From IMG/VR virus record IMGVR_UViG_3300039314_000292: a stretch of DNA of 41,845 nucleotides; one strand, given 5' to 3'. This DNA comes from a virus (taxonomy: Duplodnaviria; Heunggongvirae; Uroviricota; Caudoviricetes). A program made the translations under genes and the position numbers. This document shows, one piece after another, positions 3,387 to 36,880 of the stretch. The notes below the pieces were generated by a model. The model was not told the DNA's origin, made no database searches, and worked only from the letters and a program-made list of their open reading frames with translations. Every line of letters starts with the position of its first letter. Positions within the stretch are counted from its first letter, which is position 1.

Positions 3387-6300
3387 TTAACGTTCTTCCA
3401 GAGACTGAATCCGCTCTTTTATCTTATCCATTTCTCTGCGCTGCCATGCTGCCTCGATATAGAATAAGAGATCAGGTCTGACCCCCCATCTAGATCCTGC
3501 TGGCGTTATTTCAACGCGCTCAATGATGTCTTCCATTACCATCACTGGATTATCATCCTCATCAACAATAATGCTCCCGTCATTATCAGTCAGCGGCATT
3601 TCCCTTTGGCCAGTAATGACGTCATCATATACTGCGGGATAATCGTCATAGCAAAGAAACGCATAGCGGCATGTTGTGCTTTCTTCTTCCATGAGTCCGT
3701 GAGAAATAAGAACATCACGAAGTTGCTGCGCGATTACACCATGATGTATCCTCGCCCCTTCTTCCCCCTTTATAGCGACAGCGTTCAGCCATTTATAAGC
3801 GATATACCTGACGTCACCCCAGGCATCCAGCAATGCTTCGTCAGGAGAGACCGGCTCTGTCTTTAATGTTCCGTCACTGGTAACCACAGGATTGGAGCCA
3901 AGATAAACTGTCGAGAACCTGTTTCCCGGACCACCAAGAGCATTTACATTATCAAGATAAGGTTTAACATCTCCGTTCTCAAAAAGATGTTCGAGTGCGT
4001 TATATACCGCGCGACGTGGAGTACTGCTTCCGGAACCATGCAACGTTATCATTGCACCATCTGCTGAAGACGTTGTTTCACCGCCGCTAACGATTAATCT
4101 CTGAGCGGTAACATCATCAGACGGTACTTTCTTCGCAATAATGGCGTAATTACCCTCAAGTTTGACTTCCGCGCGAACTTGTCCTGATGTACCTGCATGG
4201 ACAGTCAGTGACTGGACGGCAACATCATCTGTGAAATCAACGGGTACAGGAACCGTCCTCACGCCTGACGTCGACATAAAAGTAGGAAGCGTTCTGTTAG
4301 GAGTGGCTCCGTAGACAAAATCCCTTGAAACAAATTCTTCCTGTTTAATTTTCACCCTGAAACAATACAAATCAGCCGGGTGACCATCGTGAACATAAGG
4401 ATATTTTCTGTTGTTATCCCCTATGCTCCATGGGTTTAGAAAGTCTTCCCCACCGAAAATGTAGTACAGCCAGTTGTCTTTGATACAAACTGAACCAACA
4501 CCAACCGCAGAGTTAACTATTCCGCCCTGATAAATCTGATCAGTAACATTAACCCACTCTACATTATCCAGACTCCACTCATTGACGTTAACTCTGGTCA
4601 TAAATGTTCTTGGATAATTTCCTGCATAACGGTTATCAGGTTCTCCTCCTTCCCACTCACCAAATGCGCGCTCACTGCCAAAAATAATCAGCTCATCGCC
4701 AACTTTGGCAAAAGGAAGGTTTGAGTGATGAACATTATTTGGGAAGCGAAGAGAATTCCATGATGTACCTAAATCAGAGCTTCTGTGCAATGAACTACCG
4801 GGTTGAGTACTTAATGTCCCCCTGGTCGTCAGATACAGAATGCCATCATAATATTTTACACATGGCTCAGATGCATTCGCCTCATATTCTGCAGGTATGC
4901 GTCTGCGAACAAAGCTACCAGGAGAACCGAAAGCATCAGAGAAATAGAGTATCCCAAGCTCGCGTGGACCAATATCACCATTATGGTAGCCAACAGCAAA
5001 ACTGTTATCGCTAATCGTCGCAAAACTGTGAATCTCAGTAACAGGAGTGCTTCCGTCAACAAAAGAAGGAATAGTTCCAAGACTGGTTTTTCTCCATGGT
5101 GACGAGTGAAATGATGTACCAAAACTCCAGTATCTACCCTCGTTATTCTGATCCACATCCTGGGTATTTTGCGTCGTAACTGTAAAAGTATTTTTATCAA
5201 TAACAGTAGTCACCGTCATATTCCCGGTAACACCTGTAACACCAGAGTTTGAGAAGTTGACAAAATCACCAGCAAATAATCCGTGATCAGTAATGCGAAT
5301 ATAAGCGACTTGCTGATTTGCTGCTTTCGTTATACCACCATAAACGCGAAGGCTGCGACTCATTGGGCGATCCCACAACTCTGCAACCTGCAGTTTATTT
5401 CCGCTCACGGTCCGCGTCTCAATTACAGCAAAAAGGCGATTTCTGACAACCCCCATACTCATGCAGTGATAGTTAACTGTGGGATAGTTTTCATGTAAAT
5501 CTGTAAGCCATTCCGGCGTTGTCCAGGTCTTCCCGTCATCTCCTGAGCGAACCCATGCAACATGGAGGTTATTTACACCATGGCGGTCTCCAGCCATAAA
5601 AGGCGCATAGATGACATTGTCATATACAAACGTTTTATCCTGCGTCCAGGCGTTGTACCACGGTGTATCTGTAATTTTAAATAACTCTCCCTGGATAAAA
5701 TCTTCAGAAGCATAAAAAAGAGGCTGGCCCGGTATTCTCTCAAATAAAAAACGAGCATTTTTAAATCGACTGACATCCGGAAGAGTTGATACTTTAAAAG
5801 TAAGCCCTAATCCGTCAATTCTATAACCTGGAGATGAGGCTTCAAGGCACGCGCTTATTGCAGTGGAATCGTCATTTATACCATCACCAACAGCTCCAAA
5901 ATCTTTGGGGCTAATAGCATCACGCATTTTATCCTGGAACGTTCGGTACACAGCCCCAGAACCATACTGAATAAACCAACCAAAACCACCAACAACCCCG
6001 GCGATTGCAGCATCGACATAATTACGCATTGAGCGATTATTTACAGCGTCCTGCTCAAATGATGGATCTGCAAGGTTAGAAATTTTGTTTTGCTTTGCAT
6101 CGTAATATTTTGCAAGCAAAGATGGTTTCATCAATGCACGTCTGAACCACCCAAAACATTGCTGGATCAGCATCGTCAGGTAGTCAAAGGCATCTTCATG
6201 CACTTCGGGGAAAAATTTTCCCTGATTGCGAAGGTCTGTCTCCTGCACTACATCAAGCACACGATCTATCGTAATTCGCCATCCAGTAGCAAGCGGAGAC

Positions 6301-6506
6301 GGAAGAACCACAGAACCGCCACTATAAGTGCCCGCCCCAGTTACCGTATAACCGGTATCCAGAACCAATTCTGTTACGTTTCCGTTCAGGTCAGACACCT
6401 GAACAACCAGGTCTGATTTTCTGAAAATTCGAAAAGTATACGGAAACGATGTCGTAACGCCGTTACCGGTGTATTCGTTGTGGTCAACTTCGGTTGAGAC
6501 CGTCAT
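3387..6506 (-). CDS. tailspike / receptor-binding depolymerase with C-terminal intramolecular chaperone domain (1039 aa)
   Basis: N-terminal NEYTGNGVTTSFPYTF segment typical of podovirus spike N-termini; DFGAVGDGINDDSTAI beta-helix (pectate-lyase-3-like) signature; Asp-box motifs SGDDGKTW and SSDLGTSW; C-terminal about 160 aa with SDGTLKT motif resembling self-cleaving chaperone (peptidase S74-like) domains. Confidence 0.9.
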   Translation of the reverse strand: MTVSTEVDHNEYTGNGVTTSFPYTFRIFRKSDLVVQVSDLNGNVTELVLDTGYTVTGAGTYSGGSVVLPSPLATGWRITIDRVLDVVQETDLRNQGKFFPEVHEDAFDYLTMLIQQCFGWFRRALMKPSLLAKYYDAKQNKISNLADPSFEQDAVNNRSMRNYVDAAIAGVVGGFGWFIQYGSGAVYRTFQDKMRDAISPKDFGAVGDGINDDSTAISACLEASSPGYRIDGLGLTFKVSTLPDVSRFKNARFLFERIPGQPLFYASEDFIQGELFKITDTPWYNAWTQDKTFVYDNVIYAPFMAGDRHGVNNLHVAWVRSGDDGKTWTTPEWLTDLHENYPTVNYHCMSMGVVRNRLFAVIETRTVSGNKLQVAELWDRPMSRSLRVYGGITKAANQQVAYIRITDHGLFAGDFVNFSNSGVTGVTGNMTVTTVIDKNTFTVTTQNTQDVDQNNEGRYWSFGTSFHSSPWRKTSLGTIPSFVDGSTPVTEIHSFATISDNSFAVGYHNGDIGPRELGILYFSDAFGSPGSFVRRRIPAEYEANASEPCVKYYDGILYLTTRGTLSTQPGSSLHRSSDLGTSWNSLRFPNNVHHSNLPFAKVGDELIIFGSERAFGEWEGGEPDNRYAGNYPRTFMTRVNVNEWSLDNVEWVNVTDQIYQGGIVNSAVGVGSVCIKDNWLYYIFGGEDFLNPWSIGDNNRKYPYVHDGHPADLYCFRVKIKQEEFVSRDFVYGATPNRTLPTFMSTSGVRTVPVPVDFTDDVAVQSLTVHAGTSGQVRAEVKLEGNYAIIAKKVPSDDVTAQRLIVSGGETTSSADGAMITLHGSGSSTPRRAVYNALEHLFENGDVKPYLDNVNALGGPGNRFSTVYLGSNPVVTSDGTLKTEPVSPDEALLDAWGDVRYIAYKWLNAVAIKGEEGARIHHGVIAQQLRDVLISHGLMEEESTTCRYAFLCYDDYPAVYDDVITGQREMPLTDNDGSIIVDEDDNPVMVMEDIIERVEITPAGSRWGVRPDLLFYIEAAWQRREMDKIKERIQSLEER

Positions 6507-6610: not shown

Positions 6611-6625
6611 TTACCTTTCAGGTGA
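6611..6625. promoter_or_regulatory. operator-like site TTACC-N5-GGTGA (near-perfect copy of the repeated palindrome)
   Basis: TTACCTTTCAGGTGA about 40 bp upstream of the LexA box; 4/5 match in second half-site. Confidence 0.45.
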
Positions 6626-6959: not shown

Positions 6960-6988
6960 GATTTGAAATTACCAATAGGAGTGCTTAT

Positions 6989-7007
6989 ATTTACCTTTGC
7001 GGTAAAT
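6989..7007. promoter_or_regulatory. operator-like 19-bp perfect palindrome ATTTACC-N5-GGTAAAT
   Basis: ATTTACCTTTGCGGTAAAT; perfect 7-bp inverted half-sites; between small SOS gene and antirepressor gene. Confidence 0.6.
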
Positions 7008-7096
7008 TTACATCGCACTCCTCTTGTGCCATAGTAATCGGGCACTGGCAAAATCCAGTGCCGGGATTGGCGTCCCGGGTTACTAAGTGGCGCATA

Positions 7097-7118
7097 CCAC
7101 GCCAGACGTGGTTTTTTT
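7097..7118 (+). terminator. putative intrinsic terminator preceded by two strong hairpins
   Basis: CCACG-CCAGA-CGTGG followed by TTTTTTT; upstream hairpins GGCACTGG-CAAAAT-CCAGTGCC (7041..7062) and CCGGGA-TTGGCG-TCCCGG. Confidence 0.5.
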
Positions 7119-7274
7119 ATGCGTTAAGCACAGCTATATCCGAATTATGGTGGGCTGGGCAGGGGTCCGAAAGGACGCCGGTACCACTTAGGCCGGTACG
7201 CCAACCTTGTCCAGTTCACCACCAGTAATTGGCGTTGCGGTGGTGATTAAAATCACTAAGTGGAGATAACCACC

Positions 7275-7985
7275 ATGGCTAATGCTCAAACTGCCATCTT
7301 CAAATTTGAATCTGTTAACCCTATCCGTTCCATCATTATCGATGGCCGACCATGGTTTGTAGCCCAAGACGTTTGTAGTGCGCTGCGTATCCAAAACGTC
7401 ACCCAAGCACTTGAAAAACTGGATGATGATGAAAGGTCTATGTTCAACATAGGGCATGAACATCGTGCAATTTTTGACAGCCGAGTAAAAGAGATCAACA
7501 TTATCTCCGAGTCAGGCCTCTACACACTGATCCTCCGCTGCCGCGACGCAGTGACACCAGGCACTATCCCCTACCGCTTTCGTAAATGGGTTACAGGTGA
7601 GGTTCTTCCTCAGATCCGCCGCACCGGAAGTTACATTAAAAACTCGCTCCCGCAGGAAGAACGCATAAAGATGGTTGCCGACCAGGTAGCCAACGCCACG
7701 GCGTCAGCAGTAATGCAGGCGATGAAGATAGAGAACAAAACCTACAGTGCCCCGCTGAAGCCCGGCTACCGCAGTCTGATTCATTCCCCATCTGGTGTTC
7801 TCGGCCTGACGGAGCACTCACTGCTGATGAATCTGCTGAACCAGTTACAGGAAGACGGGCACGACGTATCGGGCGCGGCGGCGGAGCTGACCACCATGTT
7901 CTGCTACATCGTCGGTGTAAGCAAATGCCTGCGTGATATCCAGACGCACGCGGAGTACATCAACGACAAGGCTGGGTTCTTCTGA
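7275..7985 (+). CDS. Bro-N domain antirepressor-like protein (236 aa)
   Basis: ATG 7275 with GGAG RBS; N-terminal Bro-N signature (FKFESVNPIRSIIIDGRPWFVAQDVCSALRIQN...); C-terminal domain paralogous to 6702..6959. Confidence 0.8.
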   Translation: MANAQTAIFKFESVNPIRSIIIDGRPWFVAQDVCSALRIQNVTQALEKLDDDERSMFNIGHEHRAIFDSRVKEINIISESGLYTLILRCRDAVTPGTIPYRFRKWVTGEVLPQIRRTGSYIKNSLPQEERIKMVADQVANATASAVMQAMKIENKTYSAPLKPGYRSLIHSPSGVLGLTEHSLLMNLLNQLQEDGHDVSGAAAELTTMFCYIVGVSKCLRDIQTHAEYINDKAGFF

Positions 7986-8051
7986 CGGGCGGCGGCACAG
8001 GGATGTGCTTCTGACATAATCATTTGCGGTGTGATGTAGATTCACGTAAGA

Positions 8052-8066
8052 TTACCTTAAAGGTAA
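8052..8066. promoter_or_regulatory. operator-like perfect site TTACC-N5-GGTAA
   Basis: ATTACCTTAAAGGTAAACC immediately upstream of the 8093 operon start region. Confidence 0.55.
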
Positions 8067-8092
8067 ACCATGGGTTTACATGAGGAGGAGAT

Positions 8093-8302
8093 ATGGGATT
8101 TTGGTTCGCTCGTACAAAAACGAGGGATAATGCACCCAGCCCTCAGGCAAAAAATGCAGAAGTTCCGGCGTCAGCGCAGGTTAACAAGCGTGGTGGAGTA
8201 TATATCTCATCACAGCAAATTTCTGAGCTTCCTGAGGTTAAGGAGATGCGTCGTCTCGCTGCTGCAATTGTTAAACAGGATCTTGCCACTGTAAGGAAAT
8301 AG
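8093..8302 (+). CDS. small hydrophilic protein (69 aa), first gene of accessory operon
   Basis: ATG 8093 preceded by GAGGAGGAG; stop overlaps the GTG start of the next gene; chosen over overlapping alternate-frame ORF 8070..8294. Confidence 0.45.
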   Translation: MGFWFARTKTRDNAPSPQAKNAEVPASAQVNKRGGVYISSQQISELPEVKEMRRLAAAIVKQDLATVRK

Positions 8303-9168
8303 TGTTGTTAGCTCTTCTAATTATCCCCATTCTGGTTAGTGGTTATATTATGATAACCGCTAACCAGTATCATTATTTCCGTTTATACCGACATGAAGGC
8401 CAGCTTCTTTATATGAAAGTAGCTGCATTAGGTACATATTGCCTTGTTGCATCAGTAATAATTGCAGCCGCTATAAAATATAAATGGCCTGATTTTCACC
8501 TAGTTCACGATATGGTGGAAACTTTTAATGTAACATCAAAACCAGAAACAGATAGAATTTACATGTGGCTGCTTCTTCTCTCAGCCACATCCATTTGCTT
8601 CTCTTTGTGTTATGTGTCTGTTGTGTGGGTGAAAGATTTTCTTCTTGGTTGTTTTTATAAACGTGATATTTACGAGCAAAAAACAGAGGCAATGAAGGCC
8701 AGAGTACTGCGAAAAACTTACTCGCAAGGTTCTTTAGACTTACTATTGCTTGATGCTATTGAATCGGATCCTAAACGACCAATGTTGATTACTTTATCAT
8801 CAAACAAAGTGTATGTTGGAATAATAAATGGTTCTGGTGAACCAACGGAAAATCAGGGTCCGCATCAGCACATATCTTTTGTTCCTTTAATGTCAGGATA
8901 CAGGAACAAAGAAAACTTATCTGTCACATTCACTAATGCTTATCCAGGAGAAATACAGGTCAAGCGGACTGCAGCAATAAGAGGAATTAGCAGAAAGAAA
9001 GTGCCAGGACTTGAGATCATGGTGTCTATTGACGAAATAAGTTATATATCATGGTTTGATTTTGAAGTATATAAAGCAACAAATAACAAAGTAGAATCCA
9101 GGGGGCACGTTATTCGTGTTACCAAAAATGGAAGAAATATATATCAAAGAAATAGCAAAAAAGAATAG
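8302..9168 (+). CDS. low-GC inner-membrane protein (288 aa): 3 N-terminal TM helices plus about 170-aa soluble domain; candidate superinfection-exclusion/defence protein
   Basis: GTG 8302 with AAGGA RBS; markedly AT-rich versus flanking phage genes; TM segments LLALLIIPILVSGYIMI, VAALGTYCLVASVIIAAAI, IYMWLLLLSATSICFSLCYVSVVWV; terminator follows. Confidence 0.7.
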   Translation: MLLALLIIPILVSGYIMITANQYHYFRLYRHEGQLLYMKVAALGTYCLVASVIIAAAIKYKWPDFHLVHDMVETFNVTSKPETDRIYMWLLLLSATSICFSLCYVSVVWVKDFLLGCFYKRDIYEQKTEAMKARVLRKTYSQGSLDLLLLDAIESDPKRPMLITLSSNKVYVGIINGSGEPTENQGPHQHISFVPLMSGYRNKENLSVTFTNAYPGEIQVKRTAAIRGISRKKVPGLEIMVSIDEISYISWFDFEVYKATNNKVESRGHVIRVTKNGRNIYQRNSKKE

Positions 9169-9190
9169 CCCGCGCTGCGGGCTTTTTTGT
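9168..9190 (+). terminator. rho-independent terminator
   Basis: GCCCGC-GCT-GCGGGC followed by TTTTTT directly after stop of 8302..9168. Confidence 0.7.
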
Positions 9191-9260
9191 GGACGAAACA
9201 AAAGCCAGTGCTACACTCATTGACGCCACATTGAGGTGGCTTATAGATGGAAATTTCACA

Positions 9261-9422
9261 ATGAAAAAAGCATTTGCTGCACTGTTCGTTTTGTTGTCTC
9301 TGGTAGCTTCAACTCAGGCCTTTGCCGGTCGTTGTCAGCACGACAGCGATACCGCCGCTGACGGCTCCCGCTGCGGTGGGCGTTCTGCGGATTCCCGCCC
9401 GGGCGGCGGTGGCATTCGTTAA
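9261..9422 (+). CDS. small secreted Cys-containing peptide (53 aa), hypothetical moron
   Basis: Own sigma70-like promoter TTGACG(9220..9225)-N16-TATAGA(9242..9247); signal peptide MKKAFAALFVLLSLVASTQAFA; very short leader, no clear RBS, so low confidence. Confidence 0.35.
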   Translation: MKKAFAALFVLLSLVASTQAFAGRCQHDSDTAADGSRCGGRSADSRPGGGGIR

Positions 9423-9458: not shown

Positions 9459-10019
9459 CTACATTGATATATGATTCATAAAGTAGCTTAAAGATTTACT
9501 TCCCAGAAAAGAAATTTCTTTTCCTGGATATGTCGCAATAATTGAGCATGACTTATCCCCGTTAGAGGTAACAAATCCTGAATAACCTACTTGTTCTTTA
9601 CCATTTTGTTGCTTGGCTAAAAAGTAGAGGTAGCTTATCTTTTTGCCCTCTGGGTAAAACTCTGCCAAACCAGTATCGGTGATTGAATATTTTATTCTCC
9701 CGCCTTGAGTAACGTTTTCCATCTCAAGTTTAGCTATGTCTTTTCTGTTGTATTCAGCATTGATTTTCCTTTCGAAATCAATGTTGTTTTCAAATGAGTA
9801 GGAAGCAACAGTCTGAATAGATGGGAACACGTTTATCTGGATGCCTCCACAGTCGGCACAGGTATAAAGGTATGAATCAGATGGAATCCCCATAAAAGAA
9901 AACTGAGTTACCTTAAATTTATCGCTATCTCCAAAGTATTGAAGTTCGCATTTAACATTTTGCCCTGCAAAAGAAAATGCAGACATCAATATTGAAACAA
10001 AAAATATAATTGCCTTCAT
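9459..10019 (-). CDS. low-GC secreted protein (186 aa), moron appended to virion-protein operon
   Basis: Signal peptide MKAIIFFVSILMSAFSFAG; AT-rich; starts 2 nt after stop of the 850-aa virion protein gene; own terminator. Confidence 0.7.
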   Translation of the reverse strand: MKAIIFFVSILMSAFSFAGQNVKCELQYFGDSDKFKVTQFSFMGIPSDSYLYTCADCGGIQINVFPSIQTVASYSFENNIDFERKINAEYNRKDIAKLEMENVTQGGRIKYSITDTGLAEFYPEGKKISYLYFLAKQQNGKEQVGYSGFVTSNGDKSCSIIATYPGKEISFLGSKSLSYFMNHISM

Positions 10020-26145: not shown

Positions 26146-26182
26146 TTGACATTTAACGCACTAATTATTACCTTTCAGGTAA
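26146..26182 (+). promoter_or_regulatory. putative promoter (TTGACA -35) overlapped by perfect TTACC-N5-GGTAA operator, facing the tRNA
   Basis: TTGACA at 26146..26151; operator TTACCTTTCAGGTAA at 26168..26182 overlaps the -10 position. Confidence 0.45.
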
Positions 26183-26504
26183 GCAAAGAGTTCATTCCGG
26201 TTATTAACCTGACTGGCTTGTCGTTAAATTGAACAGGTGGGGTGAGCTTTTATTTTGAGCAGTACGGTGTATGGCACATGCGCCGATAGCGGTCTGGATA
26301 CGTTTAAGGGGCACCCTCCCTTGCTCGGGCAAACGAACCAGGTAGCCGGAATGTGCAAGTCGAGCGGTTTTATTCCGCGCACGGGGATTCACCATCCCGG
26401 CGATTCGGTGTGACGCCTCGGAAGAGACGAGGGTACAACGATGAGAGCATTTATGGAGCCGCGACAAAGTGTGGCGCCTTAACAGGCTAAGTGCTCTCAG
26501 CGTT

Positions 26505-26581
26505 GTGGCATTAGCTCAGTTGGACAGAGCAACCGCCTTCTAAGCGGTTGGTCGCAGGTTCGAATACTGCATGCCACGCCA
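26505..26581 (+). tRNA. tRNA-Arg (anticodon UCU), phage-encoded
   Basis: Cloverleaf readable by eye: 7-bp acceptor GTGGCAT/ATGCCAC, D-stem GCTC/GAGC, anticodon stem ACCGC/GCGGT with loop CTTCTAA, T-loop TTCGAAT, 3' GCCA; one T-stem mismatch (G53-A61). Resembles argU (memory). Confidence 0.85.
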
Positions 26582-26624
26582 GAATCACGCCTAAGGACCG
26601 TGATGCCAGAAGTTCCAGGTGCTT

Positions 26625-26668
26625 GGCGGTGATGGTTTCCCTTGAAGGACTATCACCGCCCTTTTTAC
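26625..26668 (+). terminator. rho-independent terminator after tRNA
   Basis: GGCGGTGAT...ATCACCGCC stem followed by CTTTTTAC. Confidence 0.6.
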
Positions 26669-26744
26669 AGCAGGACGCCATTGCGATGACTTCATGCTGT
26701 AAACCAGTACAGCCACGGAAGGCATAACTCATTGCTTCCAGTTC

Positions 26745-26769
26745 GCCCGGTTCGTCCGGGCATTTTTTT
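26745..26769 (+). terminator. second rho-independent terminator
   Basis: GCCCGG-TTCGT-CCGGGC followed by ATTTTTTT. Confidence 0.6.
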
Positions 26770-26785
26770 GCCTGATGACCACAAA

Positions 26786-26803
26786 TTACCTTAAAGGTAT
26801 AAT
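26786..26803 (+). promoter_or_regulatory. operator-like site overlapping a TATAAT -10 element of the moron promoter
   Basis: TTACCTTAAAGGTAT (26786..26800) with TATAAT at 26798..26803. Confidence 0.5.
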
Positions 26804-26804
26804 C

Positions 26805-27653
26805 ATGAAAAACTTTAAGGTAATTAGTATGTTCGAATCGTTCAAAGAGCTGTTTTCATCTACTGCCAATACTGCCGTGCATCGAGCTAAAAACCCTGTG
26901 CTTGGTGCTTTTGTTATGTCTTGGTGCGCCTTCAACTGGAAATCACTTCTTTATCTATTTTTTAGCAAATCAAATATAATAGATAAAATTTCATACATCT
27001 CAGATAACAGCACATGGAAAACTGTTATGTTTTATCCATGCTTATCTGTAATTACTATCTGCTGCCTATTACCATGGGTAAACAATATCATTAACGTATG
27101 GCAAGCAAAGCCTCTTGATAATAATGACTCAATCGAAAACCACCGGAAGGCAAGAAAAATACAACGTGAAACACGGCTACAGAGATTGCTGGCTAAAAAA
27201 GACATTACTTACGAAAAAGTAAAAACAGGCGCTGAAAAAAACATTCAAGACATGAAAGAGGAAATAATTCTTTCAAAAGACAGAATGGGACAACTCACAT
27301 CTGAATTGAAAGAGAGGGAGACAGAACTGCGCGCAGCACAAGCTCGTATTTTAGAATTATCTAAGGTTATTGATGAAACAACATCTAAACTAGAAAATCT
27401 AGAAAAAACTCACAAAAATTTAAAAAACGAATATGAGTCCTATAAGAAAAACATTCCTTTGGCAACAAATAATACAATTGCTAATGGGCTTGCAGGTCTA
27501 AAATCATTACAAGACTTTAATGAGTCCGTAAAGAAACTTGGCGTTACTGGAATTAACAATCCAGAAATCAGTACATTATTGAATAATCCTCTAGTAAATA
27601 TAAATGGTGATTTAAATTCCACCTATCAAAGAAAATCAAAAACACAAAAGTAA
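26805..27653 (+). CDS. low-GC membrane protein with two TM helices and long coiled-coil domain (282 aa); candidate abortive-infection/exclusion protein
   Basis: Strongly AT-rich; antisense to the late operon between terminase and portal; TM segments then K/E/L-rich heptad-like region. Start at 26805 or 26829 (promoter geometry favours 26829). Confidence 0.7.
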   Translation: MKNFKVISMFESFKELFSSTANTAVHRAKNPVLGAFVMSWCAFNWKSLLYLFFSKSNIIDKISYISDNSTWKTVMFYPCLSVITICCLLPWVNNIINVWQAKPLDNNDSIENHRKARKIQRETRLQRLLAKKDITYEKVKTGAEKNIQDMKEEIILSKDRMGQLTSELKERETELRAAQARILELSKVIDETTSKLENLEKTHKNLKNEYESYKKNIPLATNNTIANGLAGLKSLQDFNESVKKLGVTGINNPEISTLLNNPLVNINGDLNSTYQRKSKTQK

Positions 27654-36106: not shown

Positions 36107-36161
36107 TATTGCTTTAAATTGAATCATCTACTGATTCATATATGAGGCGATTTTCCAGAAA

Positions 36162-36746
36162 ATGAAAAGTATCCAGGACGTCCGCAGGCAAAATCTCAAC
36201 GACTTGATCGACCGTGAATTCAATGGTGTTCAGACGCGGATGGCAGAAAAACTTGGAACTCAGGCAAATCTGGTAAACCGCTGGGCTCTTGGCAAGAAGG
36301 TTATCGGCGATCAGGTTGCACGAAAAATTGAAGCTGCCGCCAATAAACCCCGTAACTGGCTTGATATTGATCGCTCGCTTTCTCAGGAGGGTTTTCAGCC
36401 TGTCGGCCCGAGTGATATAGGTCAGCTGGCGGCTCACAACCTGGAACGCTGGATGAGCGAAAGCCGCGACCTTTCAACGCAGGGAAAACTACACCGCGCA
36501 TCCGGCGTCGCCCAGGTGACAATCAGCCGCCTGTTAAACAATGAGGTCAGCGTTTCCATTTCCACCCTGGAGAATGTTGCATCCGCATTCGGGCGTCACG
36601 GCTATGAATTACTGATTCACCCGCACGACCCTGCAACCATCAACTATGATCGCTCGCGCTACGCATTGTTACCCGAAACCGAGAAAGCAAAGATCGAAAG
36701 TTACATTGAATTTGTCATCAACCAGAACGAAAAAAACAAACAATAA
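36162..36746 (+). CDS. CI-like repressor with two HTH (XRE-type) domains, no S24 autopeptidase domain (194 aa)
   Basis: HTH QTRMAEKLGTQANLVNRWALGKK and a second HTH-like segment; flanked by operator clusters; own terminator. Confidence 0.65.
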   Translation: MKSIQDVRRQNLNDLIDREFNGVQTRMAEKLGTQANLVNRWALGKKVIGDQVARKIEAAANKPRNWLDIDRSLSQEGFQPVGPSDIGQLAAHNLERWMSESRDLSTQGKLHRASGVAQVTISRLLNNEVSVSISTLENVASAFGRHGYELLIHPHDPATINYDRSRYALLPETEKAKIESYIEFVINQNEKNKQ

Positions 36747-36803: not shown

Positions 36804-36880
36804 TTACCTAATGGGTAATTTTTTTAACTCATATCTATTGACATCAAACCAGATACGCATAATTATTACCTCAACGGTAA
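36804..36880. promoter_or_regulatory. OL-like operator pair: perfect sites at 36804..36818 and 36866..36880
   Basis: GATTACCTAATGGGTAATT and TATTACCTCAACGGTAACA upstream of the recombination operon. Confidence 0.6.

Follow-up and report, generated by a model that had tools for sequence, protein, structure and literature searches.

Analysis of the virus record IMGVR_UViG_3300039314_000292 from IMG/VR (41,845 nucleotides; this whole stretch is referred to below as the window) revealed an exchangeable two-gene cargo cassette, which extends from position 8009 to ~9166 between a BRO-N gene and a terminator of the phage backbone. Gene 1 of the cassette encodes a small basic protein, gene 2 encodes an inner-membrane protein with three transmembrane (TM) helices and a predicted cytoplasmic Sm-like domain, and the promoter of the pair is overlapped by a predicted operator of the phage immunity repressor. 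We tentatively interpret the pair as a toxin-antitoxin (TA) or abortive-infection (Abi)-type module that combines a membrane effector with a small regulator, a reading to which we give somewhat less than an even chance. It is drawn from the following features of the pair: (i) its architecture, (ii) its mobility, (iii) its genomic contexts, (iv) the cassettes that occupy the same slot in related phages, and (v) a hairpin that would limit the dose of the effector. The family of the pair is large and uncharacterized, and its regulatory wiring is unusual.

Organization of the cassette and properties of its products

The cassette and its boundaries comprise the following features.

7994-8008, plus strand: backbone hairpin GGCACAGGGATGTGC, just past the BRO-N stop codon; left homology breakpoint
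8024-8052, plus strand: putative sigma-70-like promoter, read by eye, with -35 TTGCGG (8024-8029), a 17-bp spacer and -10 TAAGAT (8047-8052)
8052-8066, strandless: operator TTACCTTAAAGGTAA, a perfect 7-1-7 palindrome of the TTACC-N5-GGTAA class, covering the -10/+1 region
8063-8079, plus strand: second perfect palindrome, GTAAACC-ATG-GGTTTAC, in the leader
8093-8302, plus strand: gene 1, 69-aa basic hydrophilic soluble protein (pI 10.4), phrog_5739
8302-9168, plus strand: gene 2, 288-aa inner-membrane protein with three N-terminal TM helices, phrog_3630
8332-8367, plus strand: 15-bp hairpin within the 5' coding region of gene 2, followed by a U-rich stretch
9167-9189, both strands: bidirectional intrinsic terminator flagged by the terminator scan, a GC-rich stem (9167-9183) followed by TTTTTT

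An earlier note on this DNA, made from the letters alone, had described a perfect operator preceding a 69-aa gene whose stop overlaps the GTG start of a 288-aa gene, three N-terminal TM helices and a large soluble C-terminal domain in the second product, an AT-rich second gene, and a clean terminator at the end of the unit. This description was confirmed. The operator is the 7-1-7 palindrome listed above, and the TAG codon of gene 1 (8300-8302) has one base, a G, in common with the GTG codon of gene 2 (8302). The hydrophobic segments of the gene 2 protein lie at residues ~2-20, 36-58, and 86-110 and are followed by a soluble C-terminal half. The GC content is 0.362 in gene 2 and 0.471 in gene 1, compared to 0.495 in the whole window and 0.53-0.57 in the flanks. 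The terminator is present as described, but it works in both directions and forms part of the conserved backbone of the phage rather than of the cassette, since homology to other Uetakeviruses resumes at 9158-9167.

Translation of gene 1 starts at the ATG codon at 8093, preceded by the Shine-Dalgarno (SD) sequence GAGGAGGAG (8082-8090), and its product matches phrog_5739 over the full length of the hidden Markov model (HMM; E = 7e-52, residues 1-69 of 69). An open reading frame (ORF) of 74 aa in an alternative frame (8070-8294) was considered as gene 1 and rejected, because the 69-aa frame is the one that has homologues, a PHROG match, and an SD sequence. The AlphaFold2 model of the gene 1 protein is weak (pLDDT 68); in it, the N-terminus is disordered and is followed by a beta-hairpin and a long helix at the C-terminus. 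The small-protein family comprises 117 clusters, whose common elements are a V-V-G-R-G-x-V-x-I-D hairpin and a C-terminal helix. Many of its members (60-80 aa; e.g., P0281, P0303, and P0309) are labelled 'multidrug ABC transporter ATPase' in NCBI and UniRef, which for proteins this small is evidently a propagated mis-annotation.

Gene 2 has its own SD sequence, AAGGA, 4 nt before the GTG codon, and its product matches phrog_3630 over residues 4-288 (E = 1e-113). The charge distribution places the N-terminus outside and the C-terminal ~170 residues in the cytoplasm. Structure prediction had been proposed for both proteins in the earlier note. The AlphaFold2 model of the gene 2 protein, built from a 45-sequence alignment, has a pLDDT of 84.7; its three TM helices are long, and behind them come two short helices in the cytoplasm and then a helix with a bent barrel of five strands. 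The Sm fold is defined by a helix at the N-terminus and five beta strands that are strongly bent, and the model agrees with it; residues ~145-255 are modelled as a cytoplasmic Sm-like beta-barrel domain. The invariant residues of the family are located in TM1 (P-I-L-V-S-G-Y), at the start of TM2 (G-Q-x-L-Y), and in the strands and loops of the barrel (K-V-Y-x-G, P-x-E, M-S-G-Y-R-x-K, and F-D). Sequence comparison did not connect the gene 2 protein to the Pfam LSM/Hfq families at E <= 1, and WYL was likewise unmatched; a sequence-profile search against PDB gave just a non-significant match to LRRC8C, and a Foldseek search against BFVD returned only small Sm-like or uncharacterized phage proteins. 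Homology to a housekeeping or structural function, which would have spoken against the earlier proposal of a phage-exclusion role, was looked for in the two-gene operon and was not found.

The cassette occupies an exchangeable slot in Uetakeviruses

Genome comparison identified the window phage as an epsilon15/phiV10-like (Uetakevirus) prophage of E. coli that is integrated beside guaA; yfgI and yfgH mark one of its ends, and the integrase marks the opposite one. In an E. coli prophage of 99.9% identity, both coding sequences are annotated identically by RefSeq/PGAP. In a megablast search against phage genomes, only the flanks of the cassette matched, the similarity breaking off at the 7994-8008 hairpin and resuming at the right boundary, 9158-9167. 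In particular, the phages TL-2011b, ZX5, and EC.W1-9 match the window up to this hairpin and diverge right after it.

The slot is differently occupied in sibling phages. In TL-2011b, a 59-aa gene overlaps the gene for a YafO-family toxin, ZX5 and EC.W1-9 carry a 108-aa gene overlapping a 167-aa gene for a DUF2335 membrane protein, and in phiV10 the slot is empty. The promoter sequence of the slot cassettes differs each time, with a TTACC-N5-GGTAA site at or just past the -10 element in each. A 48%-identical allele of the pair on a viral contig (L152) has such a site after its -10 element and two more in the locus, and a Providencia-type relative (L108) has TTAACC-N5-GGTTAA instead. In two E. 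coli prophages with a ~90% identical cassette, an additional 167-aa gene follows the cassette (L167:8141-8644 and L168:8152-8655); it is of the same length as the DUF2335 gene of ZX5 and EC.W1-9, and the downstream 53-aa gene is truncated. These features suggest recombination or stacking of cassettes within the slot.

Predicted operator regulon of the phage immunity repressor

The operator of the cassette belongs to a phage-wide set of about 13 sites. With at most one mismatch allowed, the window contains 14 copies of TTACC-N5-GGTAA where 0.67 would be expected, and no more than 13 were obtained in any of 100 shuffles. The components of the predicted regulon are as follows.

36162-36746, plus strand: immunity repressor gene (194 aa, HTH_3), the presumed operator binder
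15-bp TTACC-N5-GGTAA sites at 6611, 6991, 8052, 26168, 26786, 29719, 29737, 33743, 33805, 36044, 36076, 36092, 36804, and 36866

A site at 9643 is probably due to chance. The sites of the pairs 33743/33805 and 36804/36866 are spaced by exactly 62 bp; an auxiliary operator at this distance (~62 bp) upstream of 8052 was looked for and not found. The repressor gene is flanked on each side by two to three sites (36044/36076/36092 and 36804/36866), and TTACC-N5-GGTAA is the sole palindrome class common to both flanks. A perfect 7-5-7 palindrome, TGAATCA-TCTAC-TGATTCA (36120-36138), separates the OR-like operators from the repressor start codon; it was rejected as the true repressor operator, being unique in the window.

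At least five promoters have one and the same geometry, in which a -35 element, 17 bp, and a -10 element are followed by an operator that opens with the last T of the -10 element. These are the promoters at 6963-6991 (before the BRO-N gene), 8024-8052, 36838-36866, and 33743 (minus strand), and the promoter of the TL-2011b cassette. The cassette promoter scores below the threshold of the consensus promoter scan and was called by reading the sequence; its -10 element shares its last T with the first T of the operator in the same way. Because of the flanking sites and the promoter geometry, we attribute the operator class to the immunity repressor and presumably also to a Cro-like protein; we infer that the repressor binds the TTACC-N5-GGTAA sites, including that at 8052-8066. 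The repressor is 100% identical to the repressors of phiV10 and vB_EcoP_ZX5 (ZX5 ORF21). Overexpression of the ZX5 repressor blocked lytic growth, abolished free phage, and lowered the transcript levels of holin and endolysin by over 99.9% (PMC9782041). Since the operator class flanks the repressor gene and overlaps early promoters, the operon is predicted to be silent in a stable lysogen; infection or induction would probably switch it on along with the early genes.

The second palindrome of the leader, at 8063-8079, shares 4 nt with the right arm of the operator, stops 3 nt before the SD sequence, and is unique in the window. Folded as an RNA hairpin, it has an energy of -6.8 kcal/mol (z = -2.1), and it could be either a weak 5' mRNA hairpin or a site for a protein, e.g., the cassette's own small protein.

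A covarying hairpin at the start of gene 2

The coding region of gene 2 contains a hairpin in which codons 11-15 (CTG GTT AGT GGT TAT, encoding the invariant L-V-S-G-Y) pair with codons 18-22 (ATA ACC GCT AAC CAG, encoding I18-Q22), all pairs being perfect or G-U. Its folding energy is -22.5 kcal/mol (z = -7.9 versus shuffles), and the scan flags it as terminator-like. In the enterobacterial clade, the hairpin is kept among 25 distinct homologues whose proteins are 37-100% identical, with 84% of cells paired compared to 20-58% in controls with a slid 3' arm. Double compensatory changes were observed at four core pairs, e.g., GTT/AAC to GTG/CAC and TAT/ATA to TAC/GTA, so that synonymous changes in the invariant L-V-S-G-Y codons are mirrored by amino-acid changes in the 3' arm. 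The observed covariation score was reached in 0 of 500 shuffles. We regard the hairpin as a candidate attenuator or translational brake that would hold the membrane protein below the level of its partner.

Family size, pairing, and genomic contexts

A profile search of 1.84 billion cluster representatives with the gene 2 family yielded 2,355 relatives when the cutoff was E <= 1e-3 and 920 when it was E <= 1e-10, and a species-level genome scan placed the family in gamma-, beta-, and alphaproteobacteria. The two genes travel together: among 144 loci in which the large gene is intact and the upstream DNA is long enough, the small-family HMM detected a member directly upstream of the large gene in 131 (at least 91%), and nine of the 13 unpaired loci have a look-alike ORF of similar size at this place. 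The gap between the two genes is -4 to +24 nt in most of the 131 paired loci, 40 loci having the same 1-nt overlap as the window cassette. No conserved third gene was found among 126 immediate neighbours from ~63 species, which are heterogeneous.

The pair was found in diverse mobile elements. In Cronobacter phage phiES15, it forms the last genes before attP, beside int. In P2-like phages of Klebsiella and Salmonella, it lies between the replication gene A and the portal gene, i.e., in the P2 hotspot of Rousset et al. (PMC9122126). The Klebsiella phage has the pair beside a bSEFIR protein, and in a Scandinavium P2-like prophage, the order is gene A, the pair, IetS, and IetA. In Pseudomonas and Symbiopectobacterium, the pair comes first after a tRNA-borne att site, at island ends; in V. 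cholerae, the pair is adjacent to an integrase on a TraN-bearing element; and it is also carried by IncC conjugative plasmids of Salmonella. The 126 neighbours include five integrases, and the PADLOC scan matched them to five kinds of defence protein models (IetS, CD-NTase, retron RT, AbiLi, and AriA), counted as kinds because one protein can match several models. Many chromosomal copies of the pair are located among housekeeping genes, and some form solitary chromosomal islets. Thus, the pair has the layout of a bicistronic TA-type system, with a small upstream gene tightly coupled to a larger one and carriage by mobile elements, and it recurs at a defence hotspot, that of P2, beside bSEFIR and IetS/IetA.

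The earlier note had recognized no family for either protein. This still holds for Pfam, NCBIfam, and the PADLOC models; on the other hand, both proteins fall into PHROGs of unknown function, and the gene 2 protein belongs to the family described above, with its predicted Sm-like fold.

Comparison with known systems

Several known systems resemble the pair in one aspect or another, and all of them, namely SieA, RexAB-type pairs, type II TA systems, MscS, and P1 immI, are analogies rather than homologues. With type II TA and TA-type Abi systems the pair shares a small upstream gene abutting or overlapping a larger one, mobility, and patchy distribution, and the YafO-family pair of TL-2011b has the same cargo slot and operator class. 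In contrast to type II TA systems, the downstream product is a polytopic membrane protein and not a cytosolic enzyme, and neither product matches a toxin or antitoxin family. The RexAB pair of phage lambda, which is thought to collapse the membrane potential, is similar in concept, being a prophage-encoded soluble partner with a membrane protein. However, RexB has four TM helices and lacks an Sm-like domain, RexA is a 279-aa sensor, and the pair described here has no PADLOC match. In addition, the lysogen transcribes rexAB together with cI, while for the operon of the cassette we predict repression by the immunity repressor.

The heptameric MscS-type channels are laid out in a similar way, with a cytoplasmic Sm-like barrel behind three TM helices, although the gene 2 protein has no match to the MS_channel family. 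Sm-like folds typically form rings; by analogy with MscS, the domain suggests a ring oligomer able to organize 15-21 TM helices. Alternatively, it could be a sensor of a ligand or RNA, as in WYL-type Sm-like domains. Unlike the Sm/LSm/Hfq proteins and the WYL proteins CapW, BrxR, and PafBC, the gene 2 protein matches neither the LSM nor the WYL family of Pfam, and its domain is fused to a three-TM anchor.

The regulatory wiring recalls that of P1 immI (c4-icd-ant under C1) and of lambda kil under CI, where an accessory unit outside the immunity region has an operator of the main repressor. The likeness to immI extends to the DNA immediately upstream of the cassette, where C4/isrK-type RNA and an antirepressor-type gene are found. 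The difference is that the cargo in the present case is an unrelated, exchangeable two-gene cassette, the alternatives to which bring their own promoter and the same operator class.

Proposed function and alternative explanations

According to the proposed TA/Abi-type mechanism, the gene 2 protein would be the effector, oligomerizing through its Sm-like domain and perturbing the inner membrane by ion leak, depolarization, or blocked transport across the membrane. The gene 1 protein would act as the cognate inhibitor or regulator of the effector, and the hairpin at the start of gene 2 would hold the amount of effector below that of the gene 1 protein. The immunity operator over the promoter would leave the pair silent in the lysogen and allow it to be made with the early genes on infection, on induction, or when the repressor is inactivated.

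A number of points weigh against this proposal. The toxicity, oligomerization, and membrane action of the effector, its neutralization by the gene 1 protein, and an effect on phages are what we infer and not what was observed. Repression in the lysogen would mean that the operon does not provide the usual lysogen protection, and an Abi role would then need a derepression trigger. Neither protein matched Pfam, NCBIfam, or PADLOC models (PADLOC-DB v2.0.0 and Pfam scans were read to E <= 1), and the weak model of the gene 1 protein (pLDDT 68) contains no recognizable antitoxin or DNA-binding fold. The hairpin, when sought across the family, was present only in the enterobacterial clade and absent from the more distant clades. 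The enrichment of defence genes among the neighbours is modest and rests on small numbers and crude ORF calls. Finally, a literature search by accessions, PHROG numbers, Sm-like membrane defence, two-gene TM systems of P2 hotspots, and prophage membrane defences returned no characterization of the family; the P2/P4 hotspot paper of Rousset et al. describes TM-containing systems, none of which was matched to the pair. The predicted repression leaves three live options for the role of the operon: (i) exclusion or takeover early in the lytic cycle, (ii) suicide triggered by derepression, and (iii) carriage of toxic cargo that piggy-backs on a tightly repressed promoter.

The first of these options would make the pair an early lytic-cycle phage function, neither TA nor lysogen-protecting, that serves for exclusion of secondary phages, for host takeover or arrest, or for adjustment of the envelope for replication or lysis. 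There are precedents, as T4 Imm and Sp exclude secondary phages and lambda Kil or DicB arrest the host; toxic early genes under repressor control are classical in lambdoid prophages. The operator of the cassette has the geometry of the early promoters, and the cassette adjoins a repressor-controlled antirepressor unit. Nevertheless, we consider this explanation unlikely, because the pair also occurs in P2 hotspots, plasmids, and chromosomal islets that lack such an operator or a lytic programme, and because the slot is empty in phiV10 and filled with unrelated cassettes in sibling phages, which implies that the function is dispensable for the phage. Repression also bears on prophage-expressed superinfection exclusion of the SieA/Imm type, in which a membrane protein blocks DNA entry of an incoming phage into the lysogen. 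The earlier note had assumed a P22-like setting, which was not borne out, and a sieA/immI-type position, of which the immI part stands, as an immI-like antirepressor unit lies just upstream. P22 SieA is likewise an inner-membrane protein of a prophage with three predicted TM helices, and its gene is similarly placed between the genes for internal (ejection) proteins and the tailspike (PMC10883804); the low GC content of the cassette is moron-like as well. However, hhalign of the gene 2 family profile with P22 SieA gave a probability of 0.4% over 12 columns only, the FxRYPxEAxxFNK motif of SieA types A-C (PMC10883804) is absent from the 288-aa sequence, and direct comparison with P22 SieB was negative. 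SieA is a single protein of 162-164 aa without a partner or a large soluble domain, whereas the gene 2 protein has 288 aa, an obligate small partner, and a cytoplasmic part of ~170 residues. SieA is expressed from its own promoter in lysogens of P22-like phages; in contrast, the pair resides in an epsilon15-like phage and has a perfect immunity operator over its -10/+1 region, which predicts repression in the lysogen. Thus, the earlier proposal of an exclusion or abortive-infection candidate fits the defence- and toxin-type context, while its classical prophage-expressed form is contradicted by the operator and appears quite unlikely.

A purely selfish role, in which the pair would stabilize its carrier elements by post-segregational killing and play no part in conflicts between phages, would agree with the coupled small-then-large layout, with carriage by IncC plasmids and integrative elements, and with the presence of a YafO-type pair in the same slot. 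Repressor control, however, would silence both genes in the carrier state and so defeat addiction, and the recurrent P2-hotspot position beside validated defence systems suggests a role in conflict; we hold this explanation to be very unlikely. An equally slim chance is given to a non-toxic membrane sensor or channel that acts as a fitness factor, e.g., an Sm-like domain that binds a ligand or RNA and gates an MscS-like channel for stress tolerance. Such a role would account for the MscS-like succession of three TM helices and a barrel and for the many chromosomal copies among housekeeping genes. It is at variance with the lack of sequence matches to MS_channel or transporter families, as well as with the obligate small partner, the mobile elements, the low GC content, and the slot shared with toxin-type cassettes.

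A more specific version of the TA/Abi-type interpretation, which we put forward as decidedly improbable, is that the slot of Uetakeviruses serves for the docking of suicide or toxin-type cassettes that replace one another and have each been wired independently to the immunity operator, so that the repressor itself is guarded. The effector would be a ring-forming inner-membrane pore with an Sm domain, and the small protein and the hairpin would set its dose. Loss of the repressor through an antirepressor of an invading phage or satellite or through SOS induction would then fire the cassette. If true, this would add a new effector family and a new sensing logic of derepression-triggered abortive infection or exclusion. 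More generally, should the pair prove to be a toxin or defence module that acts on the membrane, it would represent a large unannotated family, with 2,355 cluster representatives in alpha-, beta-, and gammaproteobacteria, phages, plasmids, and islands. Current defence catalogues do not contain this architecture, in which a protein with three TM helices and an Sm-like barrel has a conserved partner of 60-80 aa. The wiring of the slot offers a directly testable case of cargo joining the lysis-lysogeny switch and raises the question of what purpose is served by toxin-type cargo if it is silent in the lysogen, and the covarying hairpin within a coding region offers a compact model of how the dose of a membrane protein can be controlled.

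Neighbouring genes and other variable regions

In the orientation of the window, the cassette is preceded by the tailspike gene (minus strand), an 85-aa gene, and the BRO-N antirepressor-type gene, and is followed by a gene for a 53-aa signal-peptide protein; further downstream, on the minus strand, are a gene for a 186-aa low-GC secreted protein and then the genes for large internal virion proteins. The BRO-N gene (7260-7985) is located upstream of the cassette, and between it and the operator-controlled promoter at 6963-7005, two Rfam families were matched above their gathering scores: isrK (67.7 bits; 7042-7118, plus strand) and C4 antisense RNA (66 bits; 7143-7226, plus strand). As judged from these matches, the isrK/C4 RNAs and the BRO-N gene constitute a P1-type immI (c4-ant) unit directly upstream of the cassette.

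The tailspike (3387-6506, minus strand; 1039 aa) is annotated with an endosialidase catalytic beta-propeller domain in the RefSeq entry of the near-identical prophage, which suggests specificity for a polysialic-acid (K1-type) capsule, unlike phiV10. The 53-aa protein (9264-9422, plus strand) has a signal peptide and a Cys/Gly/Arg-rich tail, matches phrog_14503 ('membrane associated protein'), and is conserved in the backbone. Its gene has an apparent promoter of its own (TTGACG ... TATAGA, ~9220-9250) without a TTACC operator and therefore may be expressed in the lysogen. The 186-aa protein (9459-10019, minus strand; GC 0.35-0.39) has an N-terminal signal peptide, matches phrog_11983 (unknown function), and is encoded by the last gene of the internal-virion-protein operon. 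This position appears to be another variable slot, since in the closest E. coli prophage it is taken by another gene, of 137 aa.

A second plus-strand island with operators (26168-27653) is embedded among the minus-strand packaging and head genes. It consists of the operator at 26168, a tRNA-Arg(tct) gene (26505-26581), the operator at 26786, and an ORF of 292 aa (26775-27653). The product of this ORF gave just weak coiled-coil-type matches (LmuB, JetC, and PD-Lambda-1; ~1e-4), and a Gp49-family gene is found at its place in the closest E. coli prophage.

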